Source: an uncultured delta proteobacterium (GTDB taxonomy: Bacteria > Desulfobacterota > RBG-13-43-22). From it: 64,000 nucleotides of DNA. A program made the position numbers and the translations under genes. Position 1 is the stretch's first letter, and each line of letters opens with the position of its first letter. This document shows positions 784 through 59,501 of this stretch, piece by piece. The notes beneath the pieces were generated by a model that saw only the letters and a program-made list of their open reading frames with translations, was not told the origin of the DNA and did not search any database. The stretch is from positions 32,001-96,000 of the forward strand of contig CAWBOS010000011.1 in the NCBI GenBank assembly GCA_963790475.1, given 5' to 3'.

Positions 784-859
<76 letters not shown>

Positions 860-2423: not shown

Positions 2424-2464
2424 CGGATTCTTTTTAACACTTTTGTAGTTTGAAAAGTGAGTTT

Positions 2465-2633
2465 TTCACCGCAAAGCGCACAGAAAATCTTTTTGTTCAA
2501 TCCCGTTAGAGGCGGGATTGAACAAACCAACTCTGGCTCACGGCCAAACAGTTTTCCGGAGGATAGCGAAGTTTTGTGTTTGCCGGCCTCTCACCGGCAA
2601 ACACAAATTTTCTTCTTTGCGCCCTTTGCGTCT
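2465..2633. repeat. Palindromic REP/MITE-like repeat interrupted by IS110; its last arm resumes at 4234-4243
   Basis: TTCACCGCAAAG... two internal hairpins ...CTTTGCGTCT | CCGCGGTGAA; homologous, in inverted orientation, to 57672-57849. Confidence 0.8.
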
Positions 2634-2696
2634 GGTTTATTGTTGTCAAGAGTTTTTTAAATATTATTAAACAAACTGGTAACTATCTTAGAGTGA

Positions 2697-2848
2697 CACC
2701 TTGCCCAACTCTGGTAATTTGAGAGTCTCAACAGAGCTCTAACCTTGCTTTATTGGGGTTAAGGTGCAAGCGGAGAGTTATTTAAGCTCTGCGAGAAGGT
2801 CGACTTAGTCGCCTTAGATGCCGCAAACGATAATCTCTCCGCTTACAC
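2697..2848 (-). ncRNA. Predicted bridge RNA (target-binding and donor-binding loops) in the IS110 3' non-coding end
   Basis: Two stem-loops with internal loops. Loop segments CGCAGAG and GCAUCU match the target; AGCAAG and ACCAG match the donor junction. Confidence 0.7.
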
Positions 2849-2859
2849 GCTAAGAAGGT

Positions 2860-4119
2860 CTAAGCAGCCAGTTTTAACGTTGCTCCTTTTGAATAATTTT
2901 CCATATATTCGTTATGATCACGCACCAAGGCAAAAATAACACCGAGAAGCTTCCGGGCAATGGCTACCAGGGCCTTGATCTTGGGCATTCCTTGATCCAG
3001 ATGCCTTTGATAGGCCGTATGCATCACTCCCCCTTTTCGAACCGTATTGATAGCGGCAAAAAAGAGGATTTTCCTAAGAAGCGACCGGCCTCTTTTGGAT
3101 ATATGACGATTCCCTTGGTGCCTTCCAGAACTGATTTCAAAGAGGTTCAGTCCGGCCAACTTCAGGACTTCAGCCAGCGTATGAAATTTACGAAAATCCC
3201 CGACTTCTCCAATCAGTCCGGCGGTGGTAACCTCTCCTATCCCTTTCAAGGACAGAATCGAATGACTATAGGGGATCTCGGGAAGAAGGGCCGCCATCTC
3301 CTGTTCCGCCTTCTCAATAAACTGGTCAGAAGATTCAATCTCAGAAAGAAGTTCTCGTATCTCAAAAAGAATCGCCTTGCGGCCTTCTTGAAGACCTACG
3401 GAATGGCCAGCGGCCGCATAAAGGGCCGGGGCTCGCTCTTTATCCAGCTTCCCTCGGCTAACCCGTCTCAGCGTGGCCCTCAAGGTCCCAAGACCACATT
3501 GGATAATATCTTCCGGGCACGGATAATGCCGCAACAGATATTGGGCACTGCGGGTTTTAATATTCTTCATCACTTGCAGAAACTCGGGGAAGACAATAAA
3601 GACCAAATCCTGAATCTGGTTCAAAAGGCCCGTTCGTCTTCGTATGGCTCTCTCCCTGGCATGGGTCAGTCGGCGAAGTTCAGCTGCCGCGCCTTCGGGA
3701 ATGACCACGGTAAGGGCATGACCCAGCTCAATAATATCCGCAATGACTTTGGGATCTTTCCTATCCGTCTTATTGGGCGAGTTACCCTGGACTTCCTTCA
3801 ACTTCTTCGTATGCATAGGATTAACCTGAACCAGTGTCACCGGCCGTTTCATCAGAAAATGTTGCAAGGGTTCTCCATAAGACCCGGTGGATTCAAAACC
3901 AACCACGATTTCTTCCAAGTGATTGGCCTCTTTGGCCTCAACCATCCGATTCCAAAATTTCGTAAATCCTTGATCATTATTGAAAAACTCAAAAGGTTTG
4001 ATTTCCGTCCGGTCTGGACAGCGGCCATATCCCATATTGGTCGTTTTGCCTATGTCCACGGTACCGATAAGGGTTTTTTCATTGACCTTCTTAAGTTTTT
4101 TTGTTTCAATCTTATTCAT
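2860..4119 (-). CDS. IS110-family DEDD recombinase/transposase
   Basis: TVDIGK, FESTG and KTDRKD (DEDD tetrad); C-terminal LKGIG...EISSG...ISKRG...LARKL-type motifs. Confidence 0.95.
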   Translation of the reverse strand: MNKIETKKLKKVNEKTLIGTVDIGKTTNMGYGRCPDRTEIKPFEFFNNDQGFTKFWNRMVEAKEANHLEEIVVGFESTGSYGEPLQHFLMKRPVTLVQVNPMHTKKLKEVQGNSPNKTDRKDPKVIADIIELGHALTVVIPEGAAAELRRLTHARERAIRRRTGLLNQIQDLVFIVFPEFLQVMKNIKTRSAQYLLRHYPCPEDIIQCGLGTLRATLRRVSRGKLDKERAPALYAAAGHSVGLQEGRKAILFEIRELLSEIESSDQFIEKAEQEMAALLPEIPYSHSILSLKGIGEVTTAGLIGEVGDFRKFHTLAEVLKLAGLNLFEISSGRHQGNRHISKRGRSLLRKILFFAAINTVRKGGVMHTAYQRHLDQGMPKIKALVAIARKLLGVIFALVRDHNEYMENYSKGATLKLAA

Positions 4120-4266
4120 GGCTATACTCCTTTCCTTGGTTTGGGTTTAACCAACTTGCAAATTGGACCTCAAATCAAGAAAGAGTATAGCCTTTTTTGT
4201 ACGGCTTAACTACTTTCTAAAATATAGCAAGCTCCGCGGTGAAACGTTTATACTGATACGATTCTT

Positions 4267-14203: not shown

Positions 14204-14597
14204 ACCCTTATTCAATTATTCTAATTTTGCAAGAAAAAATATTCAGGAAATAAAACCCTGTTGAATTATTAATGAGATCCGTCATCATTTGATGGGTTTA
14301 AAAAAAATCCCCTCCAATCCTCGGATGAAGACCTTCCAGTAAGATCCCTGGAAAGAGTTTGTGAGTCATGCGAATAAAAGGTTTGTGAAGTAAAAAACTT
14401 GGTTTCCTTTTTTAAGATTTACAACTTGTAAAAAATATTGGCATATTCTATTTTGCCATCAAAGGGTAAAGAAATAAGTTTCGGTAAATAGATTCGGGGG
14501 TGAAAAGGTCTGGTTTTTACAATAAATCAGAAGGTTAAGTAGTACCCCTAAAAAAGTATTTTTATGTGTACCCTTCTTCCCAACCTCCCCCTATTGC

Positions 14598-14614
14598 TTG
14601 GTATAAAGTTTGCA
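14598..14614 (+). promoter_or_regulatory. Candidate sigma54 (-24/-12) promoter upstream of acs
   Basis: TTGGTATAAAGTTTGCA has GG-N10-GC spacing. Confidence 0.55.
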
Positions 14615-14879
14615 AATTATATTTATAATTTTTATCAATTTTTTTAATATTAAGCCCCTGGCAAAAGGCTTTTGATATCTTTTATAGTTTTTACACCATC
14701 GGAATACTATTGATAAATTGATAGGTTGGCGCTCCAGAGAACCAATACCATTTAAGGGGGGAGGGATGACCAAGGACTGAAAGCTGAAAAAGGATTTTAT
14801 CCTTTAATGTTATAAGAAAATTATTAAAAATTTAGTCATAAAGAATCGTTATCACACTTTCAAATATAAACTTAGGAGG

Positions 14880-16880
<2,001 letters not shown>

Positions 16881-34150: not shown

Positions 34151-35728
34151 ATGAACATCCCGCTCACCCCGATACGATTCCTGGAAAGAACTCTGAAACT
34201 TCATGGGGGAAAAACCGGCGTCGTCTGCGGAGACAGCCGTTTCACGTACGCCGCATTTGGGGAACGGGTCCATCGGCTTGCCAACGGTCTGCGCGGTCTC
34301 GGCGTGCAAAAGGGAGACCGGATTTCATACCTGGGATACAACTGTCACCGGCTCCTGGAGGCCTTTTTCGGCATTCCGCAGATCGGCGCCATTCTCATGC
34401 CGCTCAATATCCGGCTGGCCCCTGACGACTTTGACTATATCATCAATGAATCCGAGCCCAGGATTCTGTTCCTGGACCGGGACTTCATCCCTCAGATCGA
34501 ATCGATACGAGGGCATATCCCTTCCGTGAAAAGATTCATTCTCCTGGGTGAGGGCGGCGACACTTGCAACTGGATCAGCGGCACGTACGACGAGATGCTG
34601 GAAGGGTCCTCCCCGAAACCGCCTTATTCTCCCGGGGCCTATCCCTTTGAAGAGGACGACACGGCGGAGATCTTCTATACCAGCGGGACCACTGGCCGGC
34701 CCAAGGGAGTCATGCTGACTCATCGCAACCTATACCTGCATGCCCTGTCACTCCTGGCCTCCTCCCCCATGGATGAGACCGACATCCAGATACATTTGAT
34801 CCCGCTTTTTCATGTCAACGGCTGGGGCACACCCCATTACCTGACGGCCAGGGGCGGGACCCATGTCATGCTCCAGAAATTCGACCCTTCCGAGACCTTG
34901 AAGATCATCCAAAGGGAGAGGGTGACGCGGTTCTACATCATCCCCACCATGGCCAACGCCATCCTGGGGGTGCCCGATCTTGAGAAATATGACCTATCCA
35001 GCATGAGAAGGATCCTTATCGGCGGTGCGCCGCCCCCCACCGGCATGATTGACCGGGTTGAGGAGGTCTTCGGCGCGCTCACTTCCACCGCCTTCGGCAT
35101 GACCGAGACCTGCCCTTTGATCGCTTGGCCCGAACTGAGTCCGTACCTGGATGAGGAGACACGAACCTTCCGTGCCAAGCGCACCTGGGGGTTTCCCATG
35201 GTGGGCGTGGAGTACCGGATCGTGGGCCCCAATGGAAACGACCTCCCCTGGGACGGCGTGTCAGTGGGCGAACTCCTGGTGCGCGGCGACATGGTCATGA
35301 AAGGGTATTACAAGAGCCCCAAGGAAACGGCTGAAACCCTTAAGGATGGCTGGTATCACAGCGGAGACCTGTGCGCCATGGGAGCTGATGGGTCTCTCTA
35401 TATAAAGGACCGGCAGAAAGACATTATCATCAGCGGGGGGGAAAATATCTCGTCCCTGGAAGTGGAGGCGGTTCTCTATTCCCACCCGGACATTCTGGAG
35501 TGCGCGGTTATCGCCAAACCGGACGAAAAGTGGGGGGAAATCCCTCTGGCCTTGGTGGTGCCCAAACCGGGATCCAAAATTTCGCCCGAGGAAGTGATCG
35601 AGTTCGCCAGAAAGAACCTGGCCCATTTCAAGGCCCCAAGAGAAGTGCGCCTGATCAGCGAGTTTCCCAGAGGGGGCACCGGAAAAATCCTCAAATCGGT
35701 GCTGCGAAAGAACCTGCAAACCGATTGA
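34151..35728 (+). CDS. Acyl-CoA synthetase (AMP-forming)
   Basis: YTSGTTGRPKG, FGMTET, GWYHSGD, SGGENISS.EVE, GKILK. Confidence 0.92.
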   Translation: MNIPLTPIRFLERTLKLHGGKTGVVCGDSRFTYAAFGERVHRLANGLRGLGVQKGDRISYLGYNCHRLLEAFFGIPQIGAILMPLNIRLAPDDFDYIINESEPRILFLDRDFIPQIESIRGHIPSVKRFILLGEGGDTCNWISGTYDEMLEGSSPKPPYSPGAYPFEEDDTAEIFYTSGTTGRPKGVMLTHRNLYLHALSLLASSPMDETDIQIHLIPLFHVNGWGTPHYLTARGGTHVMLQKFDPSETLKIIQRERVTRFYIIPTMANAILGVPDLEKYDLSSMRRILIGGAPPPTGMIDRVEEVFGALTSTAFGMTETCPLIAWPELSPYLDEETRTFRAKRTWGFPMVGVEYRIVGPNGNDLPWDGVSVGELLVRGDMVMKGYYKSPKETAETLKDGWYHSGDLCAMGADGSLYIKDRQKDIIISGGENISSLEVEAVLYSHPDILECAVIAKPDEKWGEIPLALVVPKPGSKISPEEVIEFARKNLAHFKAPREVRLISEFPRGGTGKILKSVLRKNLQTD

Positions 35729-57671: not shown

Positions 57672-57849
57672 TTCACCGCTGAGACGCAGAGAGCGCTGAG
57701 AAATAATTTTATCGATTGCCGGTGAGGGGCCGGCAATCGATAAGCTTCGCTACCCTCCGGGTATTTGTTGGCCAACGGCCTGAGCTGTAATGTACAATCC
57801 CGCCTCTCACGGAATTGTACATTAATAATCCTCTGCGCTCTCTGCGTCT
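57672..57849. repeat. Palindromic repeat interrupted by IS110 copy 2; arm resumes at 59450-59460
   Basis: TTCACCGCTGAGACGCAGAG...CTCTGCGTCT | CTGCGGTAAAA. Confidence 0.82.
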
Positions 57850-57912
57850 GGTTTATTGTTGTCAAGAGTTTTTTAAATATTATTAAACAAACTGGTAACT
57901 ATCTTAGAGTGA

Positions 57913-58064
57913 CACCTTGCCCAACTCTGGTAATTTGAGAGTCTCAACAGAGCTCTAACCTTGCTTTATTGGGGTTAAGGTGCAAGCGGAGAGTTATTTA
58001 AGCTCTGCGAGAAGGTCGACTTAGTCGCCTTAGATGCCGCAAACGATAATCTCTCCGCTTACAC
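57913..58064 (-). ncRNA. Predicted bridge RNA, copy 2
   Basis: Same sequence as 2697-2848. Confidence 0.7.
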
Positions 58065-58075
58065 GCTAAGAAGGT

Positions 58076-59335
58076 CTAAGCAGCCAGTTTTAACGTTGCT
58101 CCTTTTGAATAATTTTCCATATATTCGTTATGATCACGCACCAAGGCAAAAATAACACCGAGAAGCTTCCGGGCAATGGCTACCAGGGCCTTGATCTTGG
58201 GCATTCCTTGATCCAGATGCCTTTGATAGGCCGTATGCATCACTCCCCCTTTTCGAACCGTATTGATAGCGGCAAAAAAGAGGATTTTCCTAAGAAGCGA
58301 CCGGCCTCTTTTGGATATATGACGATTCCCTTGGTGCCTTCCAGAACTGATTTCAAAGAGGTTCAGTCCGGCCAACTTCAGGACTTCAGCCAGCGTATGA
58401 AATTTACGAAAATCCCCGACTTCTCCAATCAGTCCGGCGGTGGTAACCTCTCCTATCCCTTTCAAGGACAGAATCGAATGACTATAGGGGATCTCGGGAA
58501 GAAGGGCCGCCATCTCCTGTTCCGCCTTCTCAATAAACTGGTCAGAAGATTCAATCTCAGAAAGAAGTTCTCGTATCTCAAAAAGAATCGCCTTGCGGCC
58601 TTCTTGAAGACCTACGGAATGGCCAGCGGCCGCATAAAGGGCCGGGGCTCGCTCTTTATCCAGCTTCCCTCGGCTAACCCGTCTCAGCGTGGCCCTCAAG
58701 GTCCCAAGACCACATTGGATAATATCTTCCGGGCACGGATAATGCCGCAACAGATATTGGGCACTGCGGGTTTTAATATTCTTCATCACTTGCAGAAACT
58801 CGGGGAAGACAATAAAGACCAAATCCTGAATCTGGTTCAAAAGGCCCGTTCGTCTTCGTATGGCTCTCTCCCTGGCATGGGTCAGTCGGCGAAGTTCAGC
58901 TGCCGCGCCTTCGGGAATGACCACGGTAAGGGCATGACCCAGCTCAATAATATCCGCAATGACTTTGGGATCTTTCCTATCCGTCTTATTGGGCGAGTTA
59001 CCCTGGACTTCCTTCAACTTCTTCGTATGCATAGGATTAACCTGAACCAGTGTCACCGGCCGTTTCATCAGAAAATGTTGCAAGGGTTCTCCATAAGACC
59101 CGGTGGATTCAAAACCAACCACGATTTCTTCCAAGTGATTGGCCTCTTTGGCCTCAACCATCCGATTCCAAAATTTCGTAAATCCTTGATCATTATTGAA
59201 AAACTCAAAAGGTTTGATTTCCGTCCGGTCTGGACAGCGGCCATATCCCATATTGGTCGTTTTGCCTATGTCCACGGTACCGATAAGGGTTTTTTCATTG
59301 ACCTTCTTAAGTTTTTTTGTTTCAATCTTATTCAT
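58076..59335 (-). CDS. IS110-family DEDD recombinase/transposase
   Basis: Translation identical to 2860-4119. Confidence 0.95.
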   Translation of the reverse strand: MNKIETKKLKKVNEKTLIGTVDIGKTTNMGYGRCPDRTEIKPFEFFNNDQGFTKFWNRMVEAKEANHLEEIVVGFESTGSYGEPLQHFLMKRPVTLVQVNPMHTKKLKEVQGNSPNKTDRKDPKVIADIIELGHALTVVIPEGAAAELRRLTHARERAIRRRTGLLNQIQDLVFIVFPEFLQVMKNIKTRSAQYLLRHYPCPEDIIQCGLGTLRATLRRVSRGKLDKERAPALYAAAGHSVGLQEGRKAILFEIRELLSEIESSDQFIEKAEQEMAALLPEIPYSHSILSLKGIGEVTTAGLIGEVGDFRKFHTLAEVLKLAGLNLFEISSGRHQGNRHISKRGRSLLRKILFFAAINTVRKGGVMHTAYQRHLDQGMPKIKALVAIARKLLGVIFALVRDHNEYMENYSKGATLKLAA

Positions 59336-59501
59336 GGCTATACTCCTTTCCTTGGTTTGGGTTTAACCAACTTGCAAATTGGACCTCAAATCAAGAAAGA
59401 GTATAGCCTTTTTTGTACGGCTTAACTACTTTCTAAAATATAGCAAGCTCTGCGGTAAAAACATTTTTTCTAATAAATATTAATACGATTTTTCAAATTT
59501 C

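Follow-up and report, generated by a model that had tools for sequence, protein, structure and literature searches.

A probable two-loop bridge RNA downstream of an IS110-family recombinase gene, with guides that match a repeated host sequence

INTRODUCTION

Does the segment that follows an IS110-family recombinase gene in an uncultured delta proteobacterium encode a bridge RNA, and to which sequence would such an RNA direct the element? The segment lies at positions 2697 to 2848 (minus strand) of a 64,000-nucleotide (nt) stretch of contig CAWBOS010000011.1 (assembly GCA_963790475.1, positions 32,001 to 96,000 of the contig). This stretch is called the window below, and coordinates refer to it unless a contig is named. 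A preliminary description, made by eye, had placed a bridge RNA with target and donor guides in the segment. Here, we report a computational analysis of the element, its copies, and its relatives, from which the segment is very probably a genuine bridge RNA, or seekRNA, of a multicopy IS110-family insertion sequence (IS) that is aimed at a repeated host sequence.

Bridge recombinases are under development as programmable tools for DNA insertion, deletion, and inversion. Mechanistic work has been carried out almost entirely on IS621 and ISCro4, small Piv-like enzymes whose RNA lies 5' of the gene. In the IS1111 group, the bridge RNA lies in the right end of the element, as described in the cited text, which also gives the loop-side pairing rules for IS621 (PMC11208160).

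RESULTS

The element, its copies, and its recombinase

Copy 1 of the insertion sequence (positions 2632 to 4233, minus strand) was delimited by comparing copies, empty sites, and homologues. The element proper spans positions 2634 to 4231, for a total of 1,600 bp when one core is counted. The crossover dinucleotide at both junctions (positions 2632 to 2633 and 4232 to 4233) is AG on the gene strand and CT on the plus strand. A second copy in the window (positions 57848 to 59447, minus strand), called site 2 in the preliminary description, is an exact 1,600-nt match to copy 1; its bridge RNA (positions 57909 to 58069) was matched by the covariance model at 168.8 bits (contig C11, positions 89909 to 90069). 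A DNA search of the genome returned 14 matches, comprising 10 full-length copies (99 to 100% identity), two of them inside the window, and 4 flank-only matches of 29 to 34 nt. Aligned with their flanks, the 10 copies have sharp common ends with AG at both junctions and diverge outside. All 10 share only AG at the junctions, with no target duplication past the crossover bases, and 9 of them sit in the same orientation within one repeated host element. The element has apparently been active recently: the 10 RNA genes are identical, as are the 1,600 nt of both window copies. The sole copy outside the repeated element (L010; contig C6, positions 14557 to 16167) was inserted between ..ATACACAG-AG and ACGCAAAGACGC.., a site with a partial guide match that retains an A as the first base of the right flank (flank +1). 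It looks like an off-target insertion.

The left end of copy 1 runs for 112 nt ahead of the ATG (positions 4231 to 4120), and the right end runs for 226 nt past the stop codon (positions 2859 to 2634) and contains the RNA. Left ends begin with CTTGC in all homologues, CTTGCTAT is unvarying at every left end, and the upstream side of all homologues opens AG/CTTGCTATATT, where the slash marks the junction. The preliminary description had seen no subterminal inverted repeats, and we found none: in an ungapped comparison of the first 60 nt with the last 60 nt in reverse complement, the best match was 5 nt long, and there was no end-to-end pair among the 25 longest inverted repeats of the element. 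By eye, the termini resemble each other imperfectly (8/11).

The gene (positions 2860 to 4119, minus strand) was identified from its open reading frame and from Pfam and NCBIfam matches as encoding an IS110-family DEDD/serine recombinase of 419 amino acids (aa). The RNA is downstream of it, as first described. Both IS110 domains are present (PF01548, E value of 2.5e-24; PF02371, E value of 5.7e-20), and the protein scores 216 bits against NCBIfam NF033542, "IS110 family RNA-guided transposase," which has a cutoff of 140. The arrangement used to define the family, a DEDD domain at the N terminus with PF02371 and a conserved SG at the C terminus, is found here, and the translation contains VDIGK, FESTG, KTDRKD, and ISSG. 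A PDB search returned distant relatives only, namely, the IS621 transposase structure 8wt6 (E value of 4.2e-8) and ISCro4 (E value of 1.3e-5); FESTG and KTDRKD align to the E and D..D motifs of IS621. The full-length matches in a tblastn search of annotated plasmids were unnamed IS110-family genes of Bacillota (at most 35.6% identity), ISBth13 (27.5%), and ISRel25 (22.6%). IS116 matched over 68% of the recombinase, and many enterobacterial genes matched only its C-terminal part.

Structure and conservation of the RNA

The RNA gene (about 150 to 160 nt; positions 2693 to 2853, minus strand) was delimited from a conserved 3' block, a consensus structure, and a match to covariance model R1 (contig C11, positions 34693 to 34853). 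It begins a few bases past the recombinase stop codon, and positions 2697 to 2848 form its structured core. Homologues were sought in one genome per prokaryotic species, and 162 pattern matches led to 43 related loci, most of them in metagenome-assembled genomes labeled Nitrospirota, Deltaproteobacteria, or Desulfobacterales. Their recombinases share 26 to 67% aa identity with that of the window, or 46 to 67% when the most distant (L057) is left aside. The two-loop RNA is found in 49 of the 53 loci (10 in this genome and 43 related) and occurs in 23 distinct guide combinations. The pattern was not matched in L017 and L037, which stop 46 and 26 nt past the stop codon, in L056, in which the loop-1 hairpin is partly deleted, or in L057, the relative with 26% identity. 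When the 300 nt past the stop codon were aligned among homologues, a strongly conserved block was followed by a second block, ..TTGACA..AATAAACCAG, and then by divergence.

The RNA alignment comprised the window sequence and 24 of the 27 distinct nonwindow RNAs; L023 and L032, near-duplicates of L019 and L030, were omitted, as was L056 for its partly deleted hairpin. RNAalifold resolved these 25 sequences into five helices: stem 1, the loop-1 hairpin (two short helices), stem 2, and the loop-2 hairpin. On the minus strand, stem 1 pairs GUGUAAGCGGAGAG (positions 2848 to 2835) with CUCUCCGCUUGCAC (positions 2777 to 2764), and stem 2 pairs CACCUU..CCCAA (positions 2766 to 2753) with UUGGG.AAGGUG (positions 2708 to 2697). 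Each loop is capped by a hairpin with a bulged A, as originally reported: one in the target loop at positions 2815 to 2796 (helices 2 and 3, with 5 of 8 pairs compensatory) and one in the donor loop at positions 2740 to 2722 (helix 5, with 3 of 6 pairs compensatory and 100% of cells paired). Overall, 98.3% of the 966 cells in the 39 consensus pairs are paired, and 26 of the 39 pairs are compensatory; shuffled controls averaged 10.6 compensatory pairs, and none of 500 reached 26. Sliding the partners by 1 to 3 columns left 35 to 48% of cells paired and 4 to 9 compensatory pairs. The single-sequence fold of the window RNA yields the first stem-loop, with a minimum free energy of -59 kcal/mol (z score of -3.94; 1 of 200 shuffles was as good).

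Guides in the target loop and the host repeat

Every motif and position in the preliminary description was present in the sequence, and the homologue comparison bore out its two-loop layout, its target and donor guides, and its dinucleotide core. The 3' side of the target loop (positions 2784 to 2793, minus strand) consists of CGCAGAG (positions 2793 to 2787) and then CUU. CGCAGAG matches the left flank and the AG core and would pair with the bottom strand, and CUU is identical to the three bases that open the IS left end. The 7-nt guide is matched exactly by the left flank at site 2, ..ACCGCAGAG, and with one mismatch by that at site 1, ..ACCGCGGAG, both as first noted. The 5' side (UUUGCGGC-A-UCU; positions 2816 to 2827, minus strand) is complementary, with one mismatch, to G/ACGCAAA, the right flank as read on the gene-sense (top) strand. 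The left guide was originally read as GCAUCU (positions 2821 to 2816). That motif is present, but the main covarying part proved to be UUUGCGGC (positions 2827 to 2820), which overlaps and extends it.

Each side of the loop changes with its own flank, which is the covariation that had been proposed as a check. For the first locus of each distinct guide pair, an assembled flank was available for 21 of 23 pairs on the left and 18 of 23 on the right. Over the 21 distinct elements, 98 of 126 positions of the 3' guide are identical to the six bases preceding AG (108 of 126 with G-U pairs), compared to a mean of 42.9 in permutations, of which 0 of 20000 scored as high. For the 5' guide, compared with the right flank in reverse complement, the longest common substrings summed to 109 over 18 distinct elements, compared to a permutation mean of 63.4, and again 0 of 20000 scored as high. 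On the basis of this covariation, the 5' side would pair on the right of the core, with the gene-sense strand, and the 3' side on its left, with the opposite strand; the two would overlap at the core. This is the loop design of IS621 (PMC11208160) with the strands exchanged. Most elements have C-A-U near the core where C-U would be complementary, suggesting that the A in this part of the 5' guide is unpaired.

The natural target is a repeated host element, CACCGCARAG-N-CGCARAG-NN-CGCAGAG, followed by an A/T-rich spacer and a G+C-rich hairpin, and the insertion point lies after the first CGCARAG. Copy 1 splits this repeat into a left flank, ..CACCGCGG (positions 4234 to 4243, minus strand), and a right flank with the rest of it, ACGCAAAG-GG-CGCAAAG and a hairpin with a 14-bp stem (positions 2560 to 2631, minus strand), which scored as terminator-like on the plus strand. 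An empty copy of the repeat is found at window positions 2457 to 2531. CACCGCARAG occurs 85 times in the genome, mostly with the full repeat layout, and 8 of the occurrences are filled by the insertion sequence. Several related insertion sequences elsewhere target similar CGCRRAG or CACGAAG repeats.

The donor loop and a probable handshake base

The 5' side of the donor loop, AGCAAG (positions 2744 to 2749, minus strand), is complementary to CTTGCT, the first bases of the left end; AAGCAAG is unvarying in 24 of the 25 aligned RNAs. The 3' side (positions 2709 to 2715, minus strand) reads ACCAG (positions 2715 to 2711), which equals the last bases of the right end and the core, and then A (position 2710), the same base that begins the right flank. 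ACCAG and AAACCAG are unvarying. Together, AGCAAG and ACCAG match the IS ends joined as in a circle, ..AAACC-AG-CTTGCT.., and the complementarity to the circle junction that had been seen by eye is present.

The base after ACCAG does vary, and 16 of 18 distinct elements have the same base there as at flank +1 (permutation mean of 8.5; 5 of 20000 permutations as high). In this genome, flank +1 is A in all 10 insertions, matching A 2710. The corresponding variable base in 45 empty host repeats is C in 23, G in 12, T in 6, and A in only 4. Read as a handshake guide, base 2710 would account for the presence of this rarest base in all 10 insertions, even though the 5' target guide would itself pair better with C than with A at flank +1. 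It is unlikely that this A is part of the element, as empty sites already hold a base there and the related insertion sequence in L030 to L032 adjoins G or T instead. In IS621, bases past the 3' guides pair with the noncognate DNA after strand exchange and are termed handshake guides in the cited account (PMC11208158). The position after ACCAG corresponds to that of such a guide. The extension of the target loop starts with C, like the left end, in 24 of 25 RNAs (T in L039); in the window copy, it is CUU, and the left end is CTT.

A model and its alternatives

We consider it highly probable that the locus is a 1,600-bp IS110-family element whose two-loop bridge RNA guides insertion into the host repeat. 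On the pattern of IS621 and ISEc11, the element would excise as a circle, and its joined ends would create a promoter, TTGACA-17 nt-TATATT, for a recombinase mRNA that includes the RNA toward its 3' end. Processing would free the RNA from this mRNA, and the recombinase would then bind it. Loop 1 would hold the target and loop 2 the circle junction, strand exchange would take place at the AG/CT dinucleotide, and the extension of each 3' guide would stabilize the exchanged product.

The predicted -35 half of this promoter, TTGACA (positions 2644 to 2649, minus strand), is in the right end, and the -10 half, TATATT (positions 4221 to 4226, minus strand), is in the left end, so that the promoter forms only on joining of the ends: TTGACA is followed by 12 nt to the IS end and then by CTTGC and TATATT, giving the 17-nt spacer. 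Both hexamers and their spacing are conserved in homologues. A junction promoter and cotranscription of recombinase and RNA are known for ISEc11 and ISEc21 according to the cited text (PMC11187229).

Several observations weigh against the model. The 5' guide is imperfect in the window element: in each of the 10 copies, its G faces the A of flank +1. Close to the core, homologues differ by one base in the register of this guide, with a bulged or mismatched A. Owing to the shared ancestry of the related elements, their independence is overstated in the permutation tests. Donor loop and IS ends are both invariant, which leaves their complementarity without covariation. A consensus promoter scan of the integrated copy found no promoter-like site on the gene strand, and expression would thus rely on the inferred junction promoter or on readthrough. 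Finally, the RNA-library data consist of two metatranscriptome contig sets that contain shares of 0.10 and 0.04 of the sampled words; such contigs reveal neither strand nor ends, DNA carryover is possible, and their uncovered parts and depths carry no meaning. Contigs of the first set (X1) cover positions 2609 to 2837 and 4204 to 4244, and those of the second (X2) cover positions 2580 to 2630 and 3028 to 3204. The stretch from 2609 to 2837 is covered, with 3 differences, by a 479-nt soil metatranscriptome contig that continues into an unlike flank; it shows a near-identical element elsewhere, not transcription.

An unlikely alternative is that only the first stem-loop (about 83 nt; positions 2766 to 2848) acts as a guide, as a short seekRNA, with loop 2 serving in structure or processing; the protein or the flanking target would then account for recognition of the donor ends. 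A seekRNA of 70 to 100 nt is sufficient for ISEc11, whose donor needs the correct flanking target, as described in the cited text (PMC11187229), and the match of loop 2 to the IS ends rests on invariant sequences without covariation. However, the geometry of loop 1 recurs in loop 2, where 6 and 5 nt correspond to the two IS ends, and stem 2 with its hairpin (helices 4 and 5) is supported as well as stem 1, with 11 of 18 pairs compensatory. The agreement of the base after ACCAG with flank +1 is also hard to explain unless loop 2 is part of the synapse.

The structure could instead act as DNA, with single-stranded hairpins or subterminal protein sites that pair with the target directly and with no RNA involved. 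Guide sequences of IS200/IS605-type elements do pair with DNA directly, and covariation with the flanks, taken alone, fits an RNA guide and a single-stranded DNA guide alike. G-U pairs, however, are frequent and sensible on the gene-sense strand only (for example, 7 GU at pair 12/94 and 9 UG at pair 107/164), and the layout mirrors the IS621 RNA loop for loop, handshake positions included. As the recombinase family has been shown to use RNA in the cited studies (PMC11208160, PMC11187229), we regard a DNA guide as very improbable. It is scarcely credible that the segment is an ordinary 3' untranslated structure, a terminator or mRNA stabilizer whose likeness to the flanks is coincidental or due to captured target: it does follow the stop codon directly and the consensus scan found no independent promoter for it, but the gene strand has no T-run terminator, the guides of 21 and 18 distinct elements vary in step with their targets, and captured target DNA would not form two opposite-strand halves inside an internal loop.

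The bridge RNA model is retained in what follows: the RNA is real and, as judged from sequence comparison, probably functional, with a mechanism that would be the known bridge/seekRNA mechanism in a variant layout.

Distribution and neighboring features

In this genome, model R1 has exactly 10 matches, every one inside an IS copy and all at 168.8 bits, with no stray copies. It matched 8 of 61 genomes, namely, this genome, 5 of 13 others in its genus, 1 of 7 others in its family, and 1 of 40 others in its phylum. Such a patchy spread is usual for a mobile element. On four plasmid relatives (L068 to L071; 27 to 36% aa identity), the best E value of R1 was 0.26; the model is limited to the close clade, and this null result is thus uninformative about a 3' RNA in those relatives.

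Some relatives have extra sequence after the bridge RNA and before the conserved right end: a longer insert of about 330 nt in L026 to L029 and a long G+C-rich hairpin of about 100 nt in L042 to L053. The RNA and the right end are therefore separable modules. A relative at 32% identity (L072 to L075) has three full copies on the Cytobacillus firmus plasmid NZ_CP085391.1. Its ends, taken from these copies, are about 142 nt before the gene and about 435 nt after it, and its flanks resemble palindrome halves (TTATTG..AAAC and GTTT..CAATAA). When its right end was folded, a two-loop guide RNA was not readable by eye. ISBth13 (27.5% identity) has at most 137 nt past the gene.

The 112-nt left end of the window element contains only a hairpin in the 5' untranslated region (UTR), in which GGCTATACTC pairs with GAGTATAGCC (positions 4120 to 4132 and 4180 to 4192, minus strand). 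This hairpin spans the ribosome-binding site and directly adjoins the ATG, and both arms are kept in nearly all homologues. It probably limits translation of readthrough transcripts, by analogy with ISPpu9. One contig of the X2 set, from an ice metatranscriptome, joins the right-flank repeat (position 2630) directly to ..GCTCTGCGGTGAAA.., giving an uninterrupted target repeat with C at the variable position.

A search of the whole window against Rfam at gathering thresholds returned no family except tRNA. The tRNA gene (positions 787 to 859, minus strand; RF00005, 73 bits) is unrelated to the element. The sole weak Rfam match between positions 2600 and 2900, RT-6 on the plus strand (E value of 0.22), was taken as noise.

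DISCUSSION

How this element relates to the described groups of the family depends on where the RNA lies, in which order its guides are read, and what the ends look like. As described in PMC11187229, IS1111-type seekRNAs carry the segment complementary to the top strand 5' of that complementary to the bottom strand, and IS110 types have the reverse order. The preliminary description had regarded a CT core on the strand opposite the gene as unusual. The polarity is as it stated, but this guide order has already been published for IS1111-type seekRNAs in that paper.

In the cited accounts of ISEc11, ISKpn4, ISPa11, and ISPst6 (PMC11187229, PMC11208160), these IS1111-type elements resemble the window element in several respects: the RNA is downstream in a long right end and has the same guide order, a junction promoter arises on circularization (here predicted), and insertion is site and orientation specific with only the crossover bases duplicated. 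However, the group is defined by subterminal inverted repeats of 7 to 17 bp (PMC11208160, PMC11187229), which the window element lacks, and the recombinases of IS1111 types have 330 to 350 aa according to PMC11187229, compared to 419 aa here; the IS110-proper subgroup has 395 to 455 aa. At the conserved G(L)-P----SG position, the window protein reads GLNLFEISSG, with the proline missing.

IS621, as described in PMC11208160 and PMC11208158, shares with the window element the target and donor loops, the placement of their sides on different strands with an overlap at a dinucleotide core, the handshake-type bases after the 3' guides, and a DEDD plus serine recombinase. In contrast to IS621, the window RNA is downstream of the gene with its polarity reversed relative to the gene, and the proteins are distant (E value of 4.2e-8 over parts; 328 versus 419 aa).

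A third comparison is with ISPpu9 of Pseudomonas putida, an IS110-group element. According to the cited text (PMC12288879), it targets repetitive extragenic palindromes and recombines at an AG that IS and target have in common, this crossover dinucleotide being read in gene orientation. ISPpu9 is without terminal inverted repeats, and its translation is limited by a structured 5' UTR (PMC12288879). The bridge RNA of ISPpu9 is upstream, however; its downstream RNA, Ssr9, is dispensable and self-mobile, and its circles make no hybrid promoter (PMC12288879). The window element, by comparison, has no orphan RNA copies (10 of 10 inside the IS) and a strong predicted junction promoter.

Downstream RNA and IS1111-type guide order are thus both present here, and the subterminal repeats of the IS1111 group are not. 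With respect to the narrow IS110 group, the ends agree, with neither terminal nor long subterminal repeats, but the upstream RNA, which is typical of that group and not absolute, is missing. We file the element, on sequence features, in the IS110 family outside the IS1111 group; its RNA has the position and polarity of the IS1111 type, and its ends and protein size are of the IS110 type. This placement is based on protein length, the repeat test, and tblastn coverage. A gene from a Klebsiella plasmid (hit H56) was considered as an IS1111-type positive control for the repeat test, but it encodes 318 aa and its subgroup could not be assigned, so that the repeat test stands without a control. IS110-family elements with a downstream noncoding region are mentioned as exceptions, the "green group" of Fig. 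1b, in PMC11187229. Like the window element, they have no or poor subterminal repeats, longer recombinases, and a 3' noncoding region; in the text of that paper, their RNAs and guide order are not described.

Tentatively, and with slightly less than even confidence, we suggest that the element may represent a distinct lineage of IS110-type recombinases of about 420 aa that lack subterminal repeats and carry a 3' bridge RNA of IS1111-type reversed polarity. The end lengths of the Cytobacillus relative and of ISBth13 lend it support. If it is true, relocation of the RNA and reversal of its polarity would not be tied to subterminal repeats and would have arisen more than once or would predate the IS1111 group. 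The lineage would then also provide a panel of at least 23 naturally reprogrammed guides from which the targeting code can be read, including the one-base handshake and the unpaired A in the core-pairing part of the 5' guide.

The known mechanism is unchanged by these results. For the family, the finding that a 3' RNA with reversed polarity occurs without subterminal repeats bears on the relationship between the IS110 and IS1111 groups, and it appears reasonable, from the sequence features, to regard the element as a candidate new programmable recombinase, as was first proposed. It offers a readable guide code, a defined natural target, and 23 natural guide variants, and the handshake effect is visible in its genomic data, with 10 of 10 insertions at the rarest site variant. 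What these results usefully add is this panel of natural guides, together with the genomic evidence for a handshake base.

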